This document shows positions 4,874 through 11,303 of a stretch of DNA of 11,304 nucleotides, piece by piece (the stretch's first letter is position 1; every line of letters begins with the position of its first letter). A program made the position numbers and the translations under genes. This DNA is from a plasmid: NCBI RefSeq assembly GCF_057098645.1, contig NZ_JBXSPU010000004.1; one strand, written 5' to 3'. The notes below the pieces were generated by a model. The model saw nothing but the letters and a program-made list of their open reading frames with translations, ran no database searches and was not told where the DNA came from.

Positions 4874-6346
4874 ATGGATAAAGTCACTGATAATTCTCCA
4901 GATGTGGAGAGCACAGAATCTACTGAGGGGTCATTCCCAACCGTTGGGGTTGATACTGGCGATACGATTACAGCGACGCTTGCAACTGGAACTGAAAATG
5001 TTGGTGGAGGCGGTGGAGCATTTGGTGGGGCCAGTGAAAGTTCTGCTGCGATACATGCAACCGCTAAATGGTCTACCGCGCAGTTGAAAAAACATCAGGC
5101 TGAACAGGCTGCCCGTGCTGCTGCGGCTGAGGCAGCATTGGCAAAAGCGAAATCTCAGCGTGATGCCCTGACTCAACGTCTCAAAGATATTGTTAATGAC
5201 GCTTTACGTGCTAATGCCGCCCGTAGTCCATCAGTAACTGACCTTGCTCATGCCAATAATATGGCAATGCAGGCAGAGGCTGAGCGTTTGCGCCTTGCGA
5301 AGGCAGAGCAAAAAGCCCGTGAAGAAGCTGAAGCAGCAGAAAAAGCGCTCCGGGAAGCAGAACGCCAACGTGATGAGATTGCCCGCCAACAGGCTGAAAC
5401 CGAGCATTTGTTAGCTATGGCTGAGGCTGCTGAGGCTGAAAAAAATCGACAGGATTCTCTTGATGAAGAGCATCGGGCTGTGGAAGTGGCGGAGAAGAAT
5501 CTGGCTGAGGCTAAAGCTGAACTGGCGAAGGCTGAAAGCGATGTACAGAGTAAGCAAGCGATTGTTTCCAGAGTTGCAGGGGAGCTTGAAAACGCTCAAA
5601 AAAGTGTTGATGTGAAGGTTACCGGATTTCCTGGATGGCGTGATGTTCAGAAAAAACTAGAGAGACAATTGCAGGATAAGAAGAATGAATATTCGTCAGT
5701 GACAAATGCTCTTAATTCTGCTGTTAGCATTAGAGATGCTAAAAAAACAGAAGTTCAGAATGCTGAGACAAAATTAAAAGAAGCTCAGGATGCGCTTGAG
5801 AAGAGTCAGGTAAAAGATTCTGTTGATACTATGGTTGGGTTTTATCAATATATAACCGAACAATATGGAGAAAAATACGCAAGAATTGCTCAGGATTTAG
5901 CGGAAAAGTCTAAAGGAAAGAAAATTAAAGGTGTTGATGAAGCTTTAGCTGCATTTGAACAGTATAAAAATGTACTGGATAAGAAATTCAGTAAGGTTGA
6001 TAGGGATGCTATTTTTAATTCTTTAGAGTCTGTTAATTATGATGAGTTATCTAAGAATTTAACGAAGATATCAAAGTCGCTTAAAATCACTAGTCGAGTA
6101 TCTTTTCTATATGATGTTGGTTCTGATTTTAAAAATGCAATAGAAACTGGTAACTGGCGTCCTTTATTTGTCACGCTGGAGAAAAGTGCGGTAGATGTAG
6201 GTGTTGCAAAAATTGTGGCATTAATGTTTAGTTTTATTGTCGGCGTGCCTCTTGGTTTCTGGGGGATTGCTATTATCACAGGTATTGTTTCTTCTTACAT
6301 AGGGGATGATGAGTTGAACAAGCTTAATGAATTGCTAGGTATTTAA
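4874..6346 (+). CDS. cta: Pore-forming colicin of the E1 family, colicin 10-like (490 aa)
   Basis: Gly-rich N-terminal region, then [20 protein letters not shown]...[13 protein letters not shown]...LAHANN...ERLRLAKAE matching colicin E1 as I recall it. C-terminal channel domain ends [21 protein letters not shown]...LGI (E1: GIWGIAIVTGILCSYI...EVLGI). The length and the TonB-box-like DTITATL at residues 30-36 fit colicin 10; the symbol is tentative. Confidence 0.9.
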
Positions 6347-6633
6347 TTTCTCTTTAGAGAGTAATATATGAAACTTGGCAATCCTACTGGGATTGCCATT
6401 AATAAATAAAACAATGCAGATAACTTGCATAAATACCAGGGCTCTTTTTTAAATTTTGTATTTTCTTTGATATATCTAGATATGGTTAATTTAGAGTATG
6501 GATATAGCAATACATGTATTGACGATATAAAGACAAATAACAAAGGAGTGTTATCATGGTCGTTAAATATTAAAATAAGAATCCAGGGTATAAGTGATTC
6601 AGGTAAATTATGTAGGTAGTATTTTAAATGCAT
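6343..6633 (-). CDS. cti: Colicin immunity protein, E1-type integral membrane protein (96 aa)
   Basis: Convergent with the colicin gene and overlapping its stop. [10 protein letters not shown]...[22 protein letters not shown]...[14 protein letters not shown] parallels the colicin E1 Imm protein (MSLRYYIKNI...[22 protein letters not shown]...LVLAIPFGLLGLFI). Confidence 0.85.
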
Positions 6634-6957: not shown

Positions 6958-7478
6958 CCTTCTAGTGTAGTCAAAATCAGGCTGATACTTCAAGAACTCT
7001 GTTACTAACTTATAAATCTCGCTCTGCTAACCCGGTTACCAATGGCTGCTGCCAGTGGCGTTAAGTCGTGTCCTTTCCGGGTTGGACCCAAGAGAACAGT
7101 TACCGGAGAAGGCGCAGCAGTCGGGCTGAACGGGGGGTTCCTGCATACAGCCCGGCCCGGAGCGAACTGCCTAAGTCGCCCCGAGATACCAGAAGACGTG
7201 AGCTATGAGAAAGCGCCACGTGTCCCGCAAGGGAGAAAGGCGGAAAAGGTATCCGGCAATCGATATGGCGGGAACGTGGGGGCGCAGGAGGGAGCGATTC
7301 ACCGGAAACGGTGATGATCTTTAAGCCACGTCGGGTTTCGCCACCGCTGGCGGATTTCATGGTTGAGTCGGAAGACTCCCACAGATGCACCTAAAAAGTG
7401 TCTGTTTTGTGAAGTCCGTCAGGGGGGCGGAGCCTATGGAAAAAGCGCCTCCGGCGCGGCCTTTCGGGGTTTTCGTTT
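6849..7478 (+). ncRNA. RNA II primer precursor through the replication origin of a ColE1-type replicon
   Basis: Collinear with pBR322 RNA II/ori as recalled (ggtaactggcttcagcagagcgcagatacc..., gctatgagaaagcgccacg..., gtcaggggggcggagcctatggaaaaa..., ctcacatgttctttcc), but with many substitutions and an extra segment near 7330-7410. Ends approximate. Confidence 0.7.
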
Positions 7479-7515
7479 CTTGCTCACATGTTCTTTCCGG
7501 CGTTATCCCCTGATT

Positions 7516-7553
7516 GGGGTTCCGTGGGAATTTCTGCGATAACACCCGCTAAG
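7516..7553 (+). repeat. Left 38-bp terminal inverted repeat (IRL)
   Basis: GGGGTTCCGTGGGAATTTCTGCGATAACACCCGCTAAG. Confidence 0.85.
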
Positions 7554-7699
7554 CGATTCCTCCCTGACGGAAATCACTTGTTTTCCGTCAGGTCCTGCAG
7601 TTGAAGAAAATTGAATCCATAAATCTGTGATTTTTTGCGTGACAAACCCTGTCGGAATGAGAAACTGTACGGAAACTTCAATTTTAAGGTTTGTCGTAC
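7554..7699 (+). promoter_or_regulatory. res site (resolvase binding subsites) and tnpR promoter region
   Basis: 30-bp palindrome cctgacggaaa-tcacttgt-tttccgtcagg at 7563-7592, plus further TGTCGGAA / TGTACGGAA / TGTCGTACA half-sites at 7648-7700, between IRL and tnpR. Confidence 0.55.
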
Positions 7700-8323
7700 A
7701 TGTTGATTGGTTATATGCGGGTATCAAGCAATGATGAACGTCAGTCAGTTTCTTTGCAGCGTGATGCGTTGATTGCTGCTGGAGTGGATCCCCGGCATTT
7801 ACATCAGGATCATGCTTCAGGTGCTCGTGATAATCGCCCGGGACTTAAGTCCTGTCTCGCTGAACTTCGCGAAGGTGATGTACTGATAGTCTGGAAACTG
7901 GATCGACTTGGTCGTTCACTCTCACATTTGCTCCGAATTATTGAAGACCTGAAAATTCGTGGTATTGCTTTCCGATCATTGACTGAATCTATTGATACAA
8001 CAACGCCACACGGCTCGTTCCTCTTTAACCTTTTTGGCACGCTCGCGGAGTACGAAAGAACACTTATCACAGAACGCGTTAATGCTGGTCTGGCTGCTGC
8101 TCTCCGGCGGGGGAGAAAAGGCGGAAGGCCACCGGCGATAGATGCTGAAAAGGTTGATCAAATCCTCGCAGCTCTGGAAGGAGGTGCCAGTAAAGCGTCA
8201 GTATGTCGCGCATTCAGTGTGCCACGCTCAACGCTCACCGATACTCTACGACGAATTGGCTGGGCCGGACCTGGGGGGCGTAATCTGACAACGGATCAGA
8301 GCAATGTCATTTCTCGACTCTAA
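7700..8323 (+). CDS. tnpR: Serine recombinase (resolvase), Hin/Gin invertase-like
   Basis: MLIGYMRVSSNDERQ...RPGLK...GDVLIVWKLDRLGRS...GIAFRSLTESIDTTTP...GRKGGRPPA parallels Gin (MLIGYVRVSTNDQ...GDTLVVWKLDRLGRSM...GINFRSLTDSIDTSSP...GRIGGRPPK) as recalled. I place the start at ATG 7700 (AAGG about 10 nt upstream); the ORF track starts at an upstream TTG, 7691. Confidence 0.85.
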   Translation: MLIGYMRVSSNDERQSVSLQRDALIAAGVDPRHLHQDHASGARDNRPGLKSCLAELREGDVLIVWKLDRLGRSLSHLLRIIEDLKIRGIAFRSLTESIDTTTPHGSFLFNLFGTLAEYERTLITERVNAGLAAALRRGRKGGRPPAIDAEKVDQILAALEGGASKASVCRAFSVPRSTLTDTLRRIGWAGPGGRNLTTDQSNVISRL

Positions 8324-11270
8324 ATCGTACGATACGCTTTTTGGATTACCTGAACTTTATGAGGATGCACTTCCCCGGTTTTCGCTCTCCTGCGAGGATA
8401 TTGCATTCGCCAGAACTCATCGTCGATCTCATAACCGTCTGGGTTTTGCCATTCAGCTTGCACTTGTCCGTGATCTCGGTCGTACACTGCGTGCAGGAGA
8501 GATTCCCCCGGAGGCTGTTATCACCGTTGTTGCGGAACAACTGGATATTGACCCTGCTGTTTTTACACTTTACGCACAACGTGAGGAAACCCGCCGGGAA
8601 CATGCCCGCGAAATAGTTTCGGCTTTGGAGCTTCGTTCCGTCCGGAGTAGCGATTACAGAATGCTCATTATCGCGGCTACACGCGAAGCAGCAACCACCG
8701 AAAAAGGACTGCCGATCACCAGAGCAGTTATCAATAAGCTGAAGGACCAGAAGTTACTTGCCCCTGCTCCGGCACAACTCATCCGTCTGGCAATGGCGGG
8801 CCGGGCGGCTGCCCGTCGCCTTTCTTATCGGGAACTCATCAGGGATCTGAAACCTTCATCCATTAGCGCTCTCGAGCAGTTGCTTACCGAACGAGTCGGA
8901 GAAAAGAGCATTTTAGGCTGGATAGCTGAAGCGCCGGAAGGCGTGAAACTCAAGAATCTTAAGGGGTTAATTGCCAGGCTGGAGGTATTACGAACAGCGG
9001 CAATCTCCGATGAGCAACGTAAACGGATTCATGTAAACCGTTACGGTATTATTGCCCGGGATTCTCGCGTTTTACATGCGCGTGAAATACAACGAATGGC
9101 ATCCGAACGCTGTCATGCCACGCTGGTAGCCTTTGTTATTGAAAAGCAGGCAGCAATTACAGATCTGGCAATTGATATGTTCTGCAAATTGATTGGCAGC
9201 ACGAGGCGCAGAGCAGAGATAAGCCAGAAAGAGCGTCGTCTGAAAGCCGCTGAAGTACTTGAAGTCGTAGCTCAGGATCATATTAAGTTGGGACGGGCTC
9301 TCCTGGCAGCACGTGACGGTAATACTGATATTGAATCTGTAATAACAGCATCACTCGGCTGGGAAGGTTTGATTGCCAGTATGGAGGCTGCAGCTTCGGT
9401 GGCATCTTCCCATCACTGTTCTGAACTGGATGAACTTATCGGACGACAAAAATCATTACGTAAGCTTGGACGACTCATTTTCAGCGCTTTTTCTTTCAGA
9501 GCTTTTCGCCCGGATGATAGCGTTTTGTTGGCGATTGGGTATTTGCAGGCGTTCTATCATGGCCGAAAATTACCCAAACAAATTCCGCTCGATTTTATGT
9601 CCCATAAATGGCGACGTCGTGTCATCCATGGAGAAAATACCGATCTGCAGGCGTGGGAAGTCGCCGTATTCGTTCATTTGCGGGAACGCCTGAAAACAGG
9701 TGACATATGGGTTGATGGTAGTCGGGCCTGGCGTAGTTTTGAGGACTACCTTCTTCCTCACCATGTTTTCGGGCAGATGCGGGCAGAATCCCGGCTGGGA
9801 CTTGCCATTCCGGACAACTTTGCTGAATGGCGGGCTGAGCGAACCACCACACTCAACGCAAAACTGAAAGCGCTGGCAAAAGCTGCTTCGGAGAATGCCA
9901 TACCCGATGCAGAACTTTCCAGCAGAGGGTTGTCTGTGTCTCCGATTCGCGAAGAAGAGAGCGACAAAATTAAGGCTCTCAGCCGTAAACTCTACATGCT
10001 GGTACCACGCATCAGAATTACCAGTTTGCTGGCAGAAGTTCATAGCTGGACCAGTTTTCTTGATTGTTTCACCCATTATCGCACCGGGGAACAGGCGGAA
10101 GATGAAGCTGCACTTATGGCTGCGATCCTTGCCGATGCGACGAATGCGGGAGCAGAACGGATGGCGCAGAGTTCCCGGGGTGTCACCATTCACCAGATGA
10201 TGGTAATGATGGATCGTCATTTACGCACTGAAACCTATGCGTCTGCCACATCAGTTCTGGTCGATGCGCAACAGGAACATCCTTTTGCTGCTATATGGGG
10301 GGATGGGCATGTGTCATCCTCGGACGGGCAGTTTTTTCCTGCGGGTGGACGAGGAGAAGCCAGCCTCGAATATAACGCCAAATACGGCAAACGACCTGGC
10401 GCGTCGATTTATGGTTTTTTATCGAACCGTTTTGCATCCTTTTTTTCCAGAATGATTCAGGCCTCTGAAAGCGAGGCTCCCTACGTACTTGACGGCTTAC
10501 TTCATAACGAAAGTTCTGTGGTAATTCATGAGCATGCCACCGATACAGCCGGTGCGACTGAAACAACATTTTCAATGTTTCACTCTTTTGGTTACAGACT
10601 CATACCCCGTATTCGCAACCTCGGCAGTCGCAGGTTGTACGTTATTTCCCCCTCAGAGGAATATAAACCACTTGATGCCCTGATCGCCGGAAAGGCCAAA
10701 ATGGAAGTAATAGAACAGCACTGGGATGAAGTTCTGCGGCTTAAGGCCTCGATCGGCGCTGGTCTGGTACCACCATCGGTAATACTGAAAAAGCTGGCAG
10801 CATCTCCGAGACAAAACAGGCTCAATCTGGCCCTGCGTGAAATGGGACGTATTGAACGCTCAATTTTTATCTGTGACTGGTTGCTTGACACTCGGTTACG
10901 TCGCAGATCACACGCAATCCTCAACAAAGGCGAAAGCCGCCATGCACTTGCCCGCGCTATTTTTCTTCACCAACTGGGCGAATTCCGGAACAGGGCTGCC
11001 GAGACAATGGCTCACAGGGCATCGGGCCTCAACCTTGTTGTTAATGCAATAATTCTGTGGAACACGGTCTATCTCAGTCGGGCTGTTGATTACATTCGCA
11101 GCCAGGGGATCATTATACCGGAAGAGCTCTTGTCCAGTGTATCACCACTACCATGGGGTCATATCTCGCTCACTGGAGATTACCTGTGGAACGAAATTGA
11201 CCATCCCCTTGAACGATACAGGCCACTTCGTACTAATCGCTTCAATCCAAAGAACTTCACTTTTCCTTAG
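8304..11270 (+). CDS. tnpA: Tn3-family DDE transposase (988 aa)
   Basis: HNRLGFAIQLALVRDLG, NKGESRHALARAIFLHQLGEFRNR and NAIILWNTVYLSRAVDYIRSQG mirror Tn3 TnpA motifs (HNRLGIALQIGCVRFLG, NRGESRHAVARAICHGQKGEIRKR, NAVVLWNTIYMQAALDHLRAQG). Overlaps the tnpR 3' end by 20 nt. Confidence 0.93.
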   Translation: MSFLDSKSYDTLFGLPELYEDALPRFSLSCEDIAFARTHRRSHNRLGFAIQLALVRDLGRTLRAGEIPPEAVITVVAEQLDIDPAVFTLYAQREETRREHAREIVSALELRSVRSSDYRMLIIAATREAATTEKGLPITRAVINKLKDQKLLAPAPAQLIRLAMAGRAAARRLSYRELIRDLKPSSISALEQLLTERVGEKSILGWIAEAPEGVKLKNLKGLIARLEVLRTAAISDEQRKRIHVNRYGIIARDSRVLHAREIQRMASERCHATLVAFVIEKQAAITDLAIDMFCKLIGSTRRRAEISQKERRLKAAEVLEVVAQDHIKLGRALLAARDGNTDIESVITASLGWEGLIASMEAAASVASSHHCSELDELIGRQKSLRKLGRLIFSAFSFRAFRPDDSVLLAIGYLQAFYHGRKLPKQIPLDFMSHKWRRRVIHGENTDLQAWEVAVFVHLRERLKTGDIWVDGSRAWRSFEDYLLPHHVFGQMRAESRLGLAIPDNFAEWRAERTTTLNAKLKALAKAASENAIPDAELSSRGLSVSPIREEESDKIKALSRKLYMLVPRIRITSLLAEVHSWTSFLDCFTHYRTGEQAEDEAALMAAILADATNAGAERMAQSSRGVTIHQMMVMMDRHLRTETYASATSVLVDAQQEHPFAAIWGDGHVSSSDGQFFPAGGRGEASLEYNAKYGKRPGASIYGFLSNRFASFFSRMIQASESEAPYVLDGLLHNESSVVIHEHATDTAGATETTFSMFHSFGYRLIPRIRNLGSRRLYVISPSEEYKPLDALIAGKAKMEVIEQHWDEVLRLKASIGAGLVPPSVILKKLAASPRQNRLNLALREMGRIERSIFICDWLLDTRLRRRSHAILNKGESRHALARAIFLHQLGEFRNRAAETMAHRASGLNLVVNAIILWNTVYLSRAVDYIRSQGIIIPEELLSSVSPLPWGHISLTGDYLWNEIDHPLERYRPLRTNRFNPKNFTFP

Positions 11271-11303
11271 CGTGTGTTATCGCAGAAATGCCCACGGAAC
11301 CCC
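11266..11303 (-). repeat. Right 38-bp terminal inverted repeat (IRR)
   Basis: Reverse complement reads GGGGTTCCGTGGGCATTTCTGCGATAACACACGCTAAG; differs from IRL at positions 14 and 31. Confidence 0.85.

Follow-up and report, generated by a model that had tools for sequence, protein, structure and literature searches.

An invertase-like resolvase and its predicted res site in an unnamed Tn3-family transposon of a ColE1-type colicin plasmid

The small serine recombinase TnpR, encoded at positions 7700-8323 of the DNA studied here, is placed by its sequence among the transposon resolvases, as a sister to the DNA invertases and not as a member of them. It very probably carries out ordinary cointegrate resolution, in a manner dependent on accessory sites and independent of Fis, and its likeness to invertases would reflect ancestry. 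The window (i.e., the whole stretch of DNA that was analysed, 11,304 bp) is an entire circular ColE1-type colicin plasmid (record NZ_CP062882.1, E. coli O157:H16), which also carries a pore-forming colicin and a colicin-K-type immunity gene.

Inside this plasmid lies a Tn3-family transposon of 3788 bp (7516-11303), with the order IRL-res-tnpR-tnpA-IRR. Its features are given below in window coordinates, followed where useful by the position relative to the tnpR start codon.

7511-7515, no strand: left copy of the TSD, 5 bp, TGATT, read directly from the sequence.
7516-7553, plus strand: IRL, 38 bp, 95% complementary to 11266-11303; homology with other plasmids starts here.
7565-7590, plus strand: site I of res, the predicted crossover site, TGACGGAAATCA-CT-TGTTTTCCGTCA, a 26-bp dyad of 12-2-12 layout with an 11/12 dyad match.
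7635-7659 (-65 to -41), plus strand: putative accessory subsite of ~25 bp, TGACA-AACCC-TGTCG, in the most conserved block 5' of tnpR, cGACAAACccTGTCGGA.
7666-7700 (-34 to +1), plus strand: putative accessory subsite of 35 bp, a 12-11-12 dyad, TGTACGGAAACT-N11-GTTTGTCGTACA, proposed from conserved columns.
7700-8323, plus strand: tnpR, encoding a small serine recombinase (resolvase) of 207 aa whose catalytic residue is Ser9, from the ORF, its domains and alignment.
8304-11270, plus strand: tnpA, encoding a 988-aa Tn3-family DDE transposase (Pfam DDE_Tnp_Tn3 and DUF4158; NCBIfam transpos_Tn3, E = 1e-275).
11266-11303, minus strand: IRR, 38 bp, pairing with IRL.
11304 plus 1-4, no strand: right copy of the TSD, TGATT, across the record origin of the circular 11304-bp record.

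The 38-bp IRs, the 5-bp TSD and the DDE_Tnp_Tn3 transposase found around tnpR are those of a Tn3-family transposon. A non-coding stretch of 146 bp separates IRL from tnpR, and the 3' end of tnpR overlaps the start of tnpA by 20 nt. As originally predicted, the gene occupies a resolvase position, with IRL (7516-7553) and the res region on one side and tnpA (8304-11270) on the other. TnpA is 36% identical to the TnpA of Tn21 and 35% identical to that of Tn5403. The complete element is present at >99% identity in 63 enterobacterial plasmids of PLSDB, and TnpR itself on 419 contigs. A literature search found no paper naming the transposon, WP_000904945 or WP_000008826. The transposon is a minimal, cryptic, unnamed 3.8-kb element of the Tn3 family. 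[quoted passage not shown]

The tnpR ORF runs from an ATG at 7700 to a TAA at 8323 and encodes 207 aa (RefSeq WP_000904945.1, annotated 'recombinase family protein'), with the Pfam domains Resolvase (E = 5.9e-43) and HTH_7. The original prediction held that this protein resembles the Hin/Gin invertases more than the Tn3 resolvase, and this is borne out. Among solved structures, Gin is the best match (E = 6e-50, 173 bits), whereas the gamma-delta/Tn3 resolvase structures give E values of 3e-24 to 5e-26 (i.e., roughly 1e-24 to 1e-26) and 89-95 bits. In a tblastn search against phages, invertases of the Cin and Gin type matched with an identity of 52-53%. In the aligned catalytic domain, TnpR is 57-58% identical to the Gin, Cin, Pin (PinE) and Fels-2 invertases, in comparison with 35.5% for gamma-delta, 37.6% for Tn21 and 35.5% for the Tn5403 TnpR. 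The motifs on which the prediction was based (MLIGY.RVS.ND, GD.L.VWKLDRLGRS, FRSLT.SIDT..P and GR.GGRPP) are all collinear with Gin, and, at 57% identity to the invertases against 36% to gamma-delta, the likeness exceeds the core shared by the whole family.

TnpR carries the full catalytic set (gamma-delta R8, S10, R45, D67, R68, R71 and E124) as well as the GGRPP minor-groove arm. The same catalytic residues are found in the Tn3/gamma-delta and Tn21 resolvases, which have the same predicted job although their identity to TnpR is only 32-38%; Tn21 also matches the present element in its res-tnpR-tnpA order and its 988-aa TnpA. The gamma-delta residues R2, R32, K54 and E56, which form the 2-3' interface, are instead M, H, E and R in TnpR. 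Given this lack of conservation, the regulatory interface is not transferable from gamma-delta.

A C-terminal tail longer than the compact end of the invertases had also been pointed out. The additional length is real (207 aa, compared with 184-193 aa in the invertases), but it is smaller than was implied and consists mostly of an unconserved stretch overlapping tnpA. Residues 185-192 (RIGWAGPG) are conserved and constitute a motif common to the whole clade, whereas residues 193-207 present zero conservation in the family, whose members terminate at 199-216 aa. Given that residues 193-207 are unconserved and that the last 20 nt of tnpR lie within tnpA, the tail does not in itself point to an unusual function. 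An extension of ~100 aa past the HTH, as in the ISXc5 type, is absent from TnpR (207 vs 307 aa), which has only some eight conserved extra residues.

A phylogeny, a check proposed together with the original prediction, was obtained by NJ with 500 bootstraps on a small reference set, whose invertases are Gin, Cin, Pin and Fels-2 and whose resolvases include gamma-delta, Tn21 and Tn5403. It places TnpR on the invertase-like side, apart from the gamma-delta, Tn21 and Tn5403 resolvases, yet outside the invertase clade. The latter, composed of Gin, Cin, Pin and the Fels-2 invertase, has 100% bootstrap support and excludes TnpR. Another clade, also with 100% support, contains TnpR, its homologues from Xenorhabdus, Sphingomonas and Methylobacterium, and the Tn4662-like and Xanthomonas TnpR; it unites with the TniR of Tn5053 at 74%. 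A split with 79% support separates the invertase-like proteins, including a 307-aa resolvase of the ISXc4/ISXc5 type, from the gamma-delta, Tn21 and Tn5403 resolvases. Support is low for the deep branches, at 18-39%. Two insertions of 2 aa each, one after SxND and one in VDPRHL, are common to TnpR, TniR and the Tn4662-like protein and absent from the invertases. The branch to which TnpR belongs (the Tn4662/Tn5501-type TnpR and TniR, with ISXc5 nearby) would have parted from Gin/Hin more recently than from Tn3/gamma-delta/Tn21.

The TnpR family is very large, with proteins of ~200 aa. The best 120 matches listed are 73-100% identical to TnpR, and the sources among them include Xenorhabdus, Salmonella, Vibrio, Sphingomonas, Methylobacterium, Rhizobium and many metagenomes; the relatives at 75-88% identity, again among the matches listed, span Alpha- and Gammaproteobacteria. 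Relatives at 81-88% identity are located directly 5' of Tn3-family transposases of 988-989 aa (in Xenorhabdus, Sphingomonas and metagenomes), and others, at 75-79% identity, adjoin transposition genes of the TniA/TniB/TniQ type. At the level of 65% identity stand a Tn4662-like element, made up of a toxin-antitoxin pair, tnpR and tnpA, and a Xanthomonas plasmid resolvase, and the TniR of a Tn5053-type mercury transposon is 53% identical overall and 63% in the catalytic domain. Among the contexts examined, no relative was found beside an invertible segment.

Three known systems can be compared with TnpR. The TnpR-res modules of the Tn4662/Tn5501 type constitute the 'Tn3000' subgroup of Lima-Mendez et al. 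(2020, PMC7157771); their res sites come from prediction and not from footprinting. Overall, their TnpR is 65% identical to ours, a value that rises to 69% for the catalytic domain; it falls in the same 100% bootstrap clade and has the same C-terminal R-x-GW-x-G-x-G motif. The likeness extends to the DNA, given the collinear res-tnpR-tnpA arrangement, the homologous accessory region and the 12-2-12 dyad at -136, with half-site TGTCGGAAAACA in Tn5501 and TGACGGAAATCA here; the Tn5501 res as a whole, predicted to have three subsites, is homologous to ours. As for the differences, the central dinucleotide is TT there and CT here, and the Tn4662-like element has a toxin-antitoxin pair, of which there is none in this element. 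The two TnpAs are only 24% identical over a partial alignment, and thus unrelated beyond family level. Given that identity to the Tn4662-like element is 65% for TnpR but only 24% for TnpA, the res-tnpR module has passed from one TnpA lineage to another.

For the second system, res-TniR of the Tn5053 family, resolution of the cointegrate has been described (PMC7765201). The TniR (TniC) of the Tn5053/Tn402 'res-site hunter' elements is related to TnpR by the 63% catalytic-domain identity and the 74% bootstrap value, by both 2-aa insertions and by a His at the position of gamma-delta R32. It differs in its partners, which are the TniABQ proteins and not a Tn3-family TnpA, and in having its own res sequence, with the upstream dyad TGTCACATAATC...GTATATGTGACA.

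The third is the 'long' resolvase of ISXc5/TnXc4, from the Tn3 family, which Liu et al. (1998, Genes Cells 3:221) describe as closely related to DNA invertases, and whose res is listed with three subsites, of which site I is hix/gix-like (Lima-Mendez et al. 2020, PMC7157771). This protein is 54% identical to TnpR in the catalytic domain and also lacks the Fis-contact residues of the invertases. However, it is 307 aa long, with a C-terminal extension of ~100 aa, does not have the two 2-aa insertions, and is encoded by a tnpR divergent from tnpA; its branching relative to the TnpR clade has 18% support. Invertase-like resolvases are an established type since 1998, comprising ISXc5, TniR and the predicted Tn5501/Tn4662 res systems, to which TnpR adds an unnamed enterobacterial member.

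The original prediction further described a res-like site with palindromic subsites next to the gene, and a palindromic subsite near tnpR is indeed present, at 7563-7592. The predicted res occupies ~136 bp beside tnpR, with the crossover site distal and the accessory subsites proximal to the gene. The site I dyad has a constant position in eight element types (this one and seven others), -135/-136 relative to the tnpR start codon, and is homologous to site I of the Tn5501 res (Lima-Mendez et al., Table S2). Its centre, CT at 7577-7578, would be the dinucleotide at which cleavage takes place. Among relatives this dinucleotide is CT, CC, TC, TG, TT, AG or GG; for Tn5501, dyad symmetry gives TT as the centre, one base off the 'at' marked by Lima-Mendez et al.

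Beyond site I, a linker of ~45 bp (-109 to -67) is unrelated between elements, and the block from -66 to -1 is nearly invariant from Gamma- to Alphaproteobacterial elements. This block holds three copies of a 12-bp motif, TGYRCGACAAAC, related to the half-site of site I. It can be parsed into the two putative subsites listed above, although the homologous region of Tn5501 is parsed otherwise by Lima-Mendez et al., and the boundaries of the subsite at 7635-7659 are approximate. The dyad at -34 has a match of 11/12 in Xenorhabdus and of 9/12 in both the Tn4662-like element and P0090; in the present element, at 7666-7700, it was counted by eye as 8/12, which is under the 9/12 cut-off of the scan. 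This subsite, which extends over the tnpR start codon, is probably the autoregulatory site as well.

The same organization is retained in a miniature element of 295 bp in plasmid CP056948.1, which has matching terminal repeats but no genes, tnpR included. Site I and both accessory blocks are kept in it with the same spacings, the blocks being placed 70/71 and 101 bp after the first base of site I. The conservation of both sequence and spacing in the accessory region implies selection for a defined synaptosome, a structure that normally imposes resolution selectivity.

Site I itself has the geometry of the invertase type (26 bp, 12-2-12, non-palindromic centre). The gix/hix crossover sites likewise consist of two 12-bp halves around an asymmetric 2-bp centre (26 bp in all), and Tn3 site I is 28 bp long with a palindromic AT centre. 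The one mildly unusual trait of the system is this invertase-like geometry of site I, in which the central dinucleotide is asymmetric and varies between elements that are otherwise alike. That dinucleotide might serve as a compatibility code specific to each element, or else the enzyme may also be capable of Fis-independent inversion; we consider these suggestions unlikely. If such a code did exist, copies of the same transposon would resolve, and recombination of res with the res of another transposon would be blocked.

Some other serine recombinases are reported to show relaxed selectivity at a low level, and TnpR might likewise resolve direct repeats and also, with no need of Fis, invert DNA at a useful rate when its res sites are inverted. 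The catalytic domain and the geometry of site I, both invertase-like, are compatible with this explanation, as are the residues at two positions to which hyperactivating mutations of Hin/Gin map: TnpR has Asn at the position of Gin H106 and Tyr at that of Gin M114. Given the strong conservation of the accessory subsites, in sequence as well as in spacing, we nonetheless find it improbable.

The likeness to Gin, Cin, Pin and Hin, which comprises the MLIGY N-terminus, the GGRPP arm and a crossover site of 26 bp whose 2-bp core is asymmetric, could also be read as the sign of a true Fis/enhancer-dependent invertase captured by the transposon, which would flip a segment between two inverted crossover sites. 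Gin and Cin are the best matches among the solved structures and the phage matches checked, and the minor-groove arm and the gix/hix-like site I (26 bp, 12-2-12, asymmetric central dinucleotide) point the same way. This reading is nevertheless very unlikely. The invertases in question act on inverted sites around tail-fibre or flagellin segments, whereas the relatives of TnpR adjoin transposases in the contexts examined, and TnpR lies outside the 100% invertase clade.

The residues that engage Fis and the enhancer argue in the same direction. Helix 1 of the DNA-binding domain contacts Fis through Gln151, Arg154 and Leu155, which are uniquely conserved in Fis/enhancer-dependent invertases, in which a basic helix-B triad (Hin K47, R48 and K51) clamps the enhancer DNA (McLean et al. 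2013, PMC3798978). With the Hin numbering transferred via Gin, the triad is K-[KR]-[KR] in all four invertases compared, but K-S-A in TnpR, in which one of the three residues is basic, and K-A-A/T in the family consensus. The Fis-contact patch, in turn, is Q-R-L in the four invertases and Q-A-A in TnpR (one of three kept), with the Ala at the Leu155 position invariant in 117 members of the TnpR family.

As for the enhancer, which comprises two phased Fis sites and usually lies towards the 5' end of the invertase gene, the one annotated for Cin spans nt 19-90 of cin, within its own 5' coding region. A crude scan for Fis sites (G-N13-C), which is weak in that it misses the annotated Cin enhancer, found a match at nt 22-36 in gin, in the Fels-2 gene and in pinE. 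The same scan gave a single match in the first 160 nt of tnpR, at nt 124 and not at the positions of the invertase genes, and none in the GC-rich tnpR relatives. In addition, one of the two insertions (6 nt in the gene) lies where the invertase genes carry the enhancer and alters the spacing.

Finally, site I is the sole copy in the plasmid: no second site I was found in the whole circular sequence with up to three mismatches. Since the plasmid has a single crossover site, there is nothing to invert. An inverted repeat at the ColE1 origin (7409-7427) was considered as a partner for the left half of site I and rejected as a chance match, given that the half-site scan returned 6 matches against 3.9 expected and that 37 of 200 shuffles matched this result.

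According to yet another explanation, TnpR is mainly a repressor or a relic, cointegrates are resolved by the host RecA, and the res-like sequences are only operator and promoter. The promoter-proximal dyad covers the start codon, and a promoter scan detected no sigma-70 promoter-like site in 7450-8400; both results were counted in favour of this explanation. The catalytic residues, however, are all intact, and TnpR is conserved at 75-88% across Alpha- and Gammaproteobacteria. Moreover, site I lies 110-135 bp 5' of the gene at a fixed, conserved distance, and is retained in the miniature element, which has no gene to regulate. We regard this explanation as barely credible.

The preferred reading remains cointegrate resolution by TnpR, for which a mechanism can be outlined by homology with the Tn3/gamma-delta, ISXc5 and TniR systems. 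TnpR dimers would bind site I (7565-7590) and the two accessory subsites (~7635-7659 and 7666-7700) of the ~136-bp res. In the cointegrate that follows replicative transposition, two directly repeated res sites would synapse, and the tetramer at site I would be activated by the subunits bound to the accessory sites, and not by Fis and an enhancer. Ser9 would then cleave at the central dinucleotide CT (7577-7578), half of the tetramer would turn by 180 degrees, and religation would part donor and target, each with one copy of the transposon. TnpR bound to the subsite at the start codon would probably repress tnpR and tnpA too. The insertion examined, that of this plasmid only, is a simple copy flanked by the TSD; simple insertions could alternatively come from RecA-dependent resolution.

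The topological selectivity of TnpR, presented originally as an open question, is less of one in this light. The protein and the Tn4662-like TnpR are members of one large clade, made up of transposon resolvases; the protein is also grouped with the Tn5053 TniR and falls outside the 100% invertase clade. It is devoid of the residues characteristic of Fis/enhancer-dependent invertases, and conserved accessory subsites lie upstream of its gene.

The weight of these results for basic biology is small, given that resolvases closer to invertases than to the Tn3 resolvase were already established. Their use is for annotation: 'recombinase family protein' and 'DNA invertase Pin-like' are widespread labels in this clade, and the protein studied here can be named TnpR. 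A defined res, in turn, helps to spot hybrid elements and miniature derivatives that carry res.

The transposon has its insertion point at window 7511-7515 in the ColE1-type backbone, just beyond the replication-origin region, and the sequences that flank it (...CCCCTGATT on one side, CTGTGGATAAC... on the other) are contiguous in pBR322-type vectors. Given this position, the insertion left the replicon intact. The backbone also carries a colicin gene and, adjoining it, an immunity gene; PLSDB's gene table for the plasmid does not list the colicin ORF:

4874-6346, + strand: pore-forming colicin gene, 490 aa (Pfam Colicin domain, residues 306-487)
6343-6633, - strand: colicin-K immunity gene (Pfam CKI, E=1e-55)

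Relatives of the transposon's IRL and res occur in other replicons, both as a remnant and within a miniature element:

L002:5001-5212: remnant of IRL, res and start of tnpR, in IncX1 plasmid NZ_CP031234.1
L037:2784-3078 (CP056948.1): gene-less miniature element of ~295 bp, also found at L038:5001-5200 (NZ_CP022502.1)

The remnant (86% identity) spans IRL and res, extends ~36 nt into tnpR, and is found in many IncX1 and other plasmids; it adjoins parA/parG, and the plasmid's own, unrelated resolvase gene lies ~1.3 kb away. The miniature element at L037 has terminal repeats ~84-95% identical to the IRs of the window transposon, and contains a complete res-like region, with site I and both accessory blocks spaced as in that transposon. 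It is similar to IS101 or to TIME elements with a portable res. The 5-mers flanking it are AGATA and GAGAT, with no clean duplication.

Site I was compared among Table S2 of Lima-Mendez et al. 2020 (PMC7157771), the Tn4662-like element (L014:4865-4890) and the window (7565-7590). In Tn5501, the dyad symmetry of site I puts its centre at TT rather than at the 'at' marked in that table. The sequence listed there as subsite II of Tn4662a, TGTCGTAAAACA-TT-TGTTTTGCGACA, lies at -136 from the ATG, where all relatives have site I. Hence, the published assignment of subsites in Tn4662a may be shifted.

Within TnpR, Arg57 falls in the alignment column of γδ Glu56 (E56), which is part of the 2-3' regulatory interface. 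Of the 16 non-invertase sequences in the alignment set, 14 have arginine in this column, TnpR included; none of the four invertases does, and they have Q or S instead. In the same set, a His at the γδ R32 position is specific to TnpR's clade and TniR. Both residues may be parts of a resolvase-type regulatory interface.

TnpR shares 65% identity with the TnpR of the Tn4662-like element (L014), and the two TnpA proteins share only 24%; the nearest named elements for TnpA are Tn21 (36%) and Tn5403 (35%). TnpR homologues with 75-79% identity (L010, L011 and L029-L032, from Methylobacterium and metagenomes) adjoin TniA/TniB(/TniQ)-type transposition genes, and Tn3-type transposases are not their neighbours. 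In L029-L032, a truncated tniQ and the resolvase gene are convergent. Judging from the TnpR and TnpA identities, the resolution module (7700-8323) and the transposase (8304-11270) have different histories.
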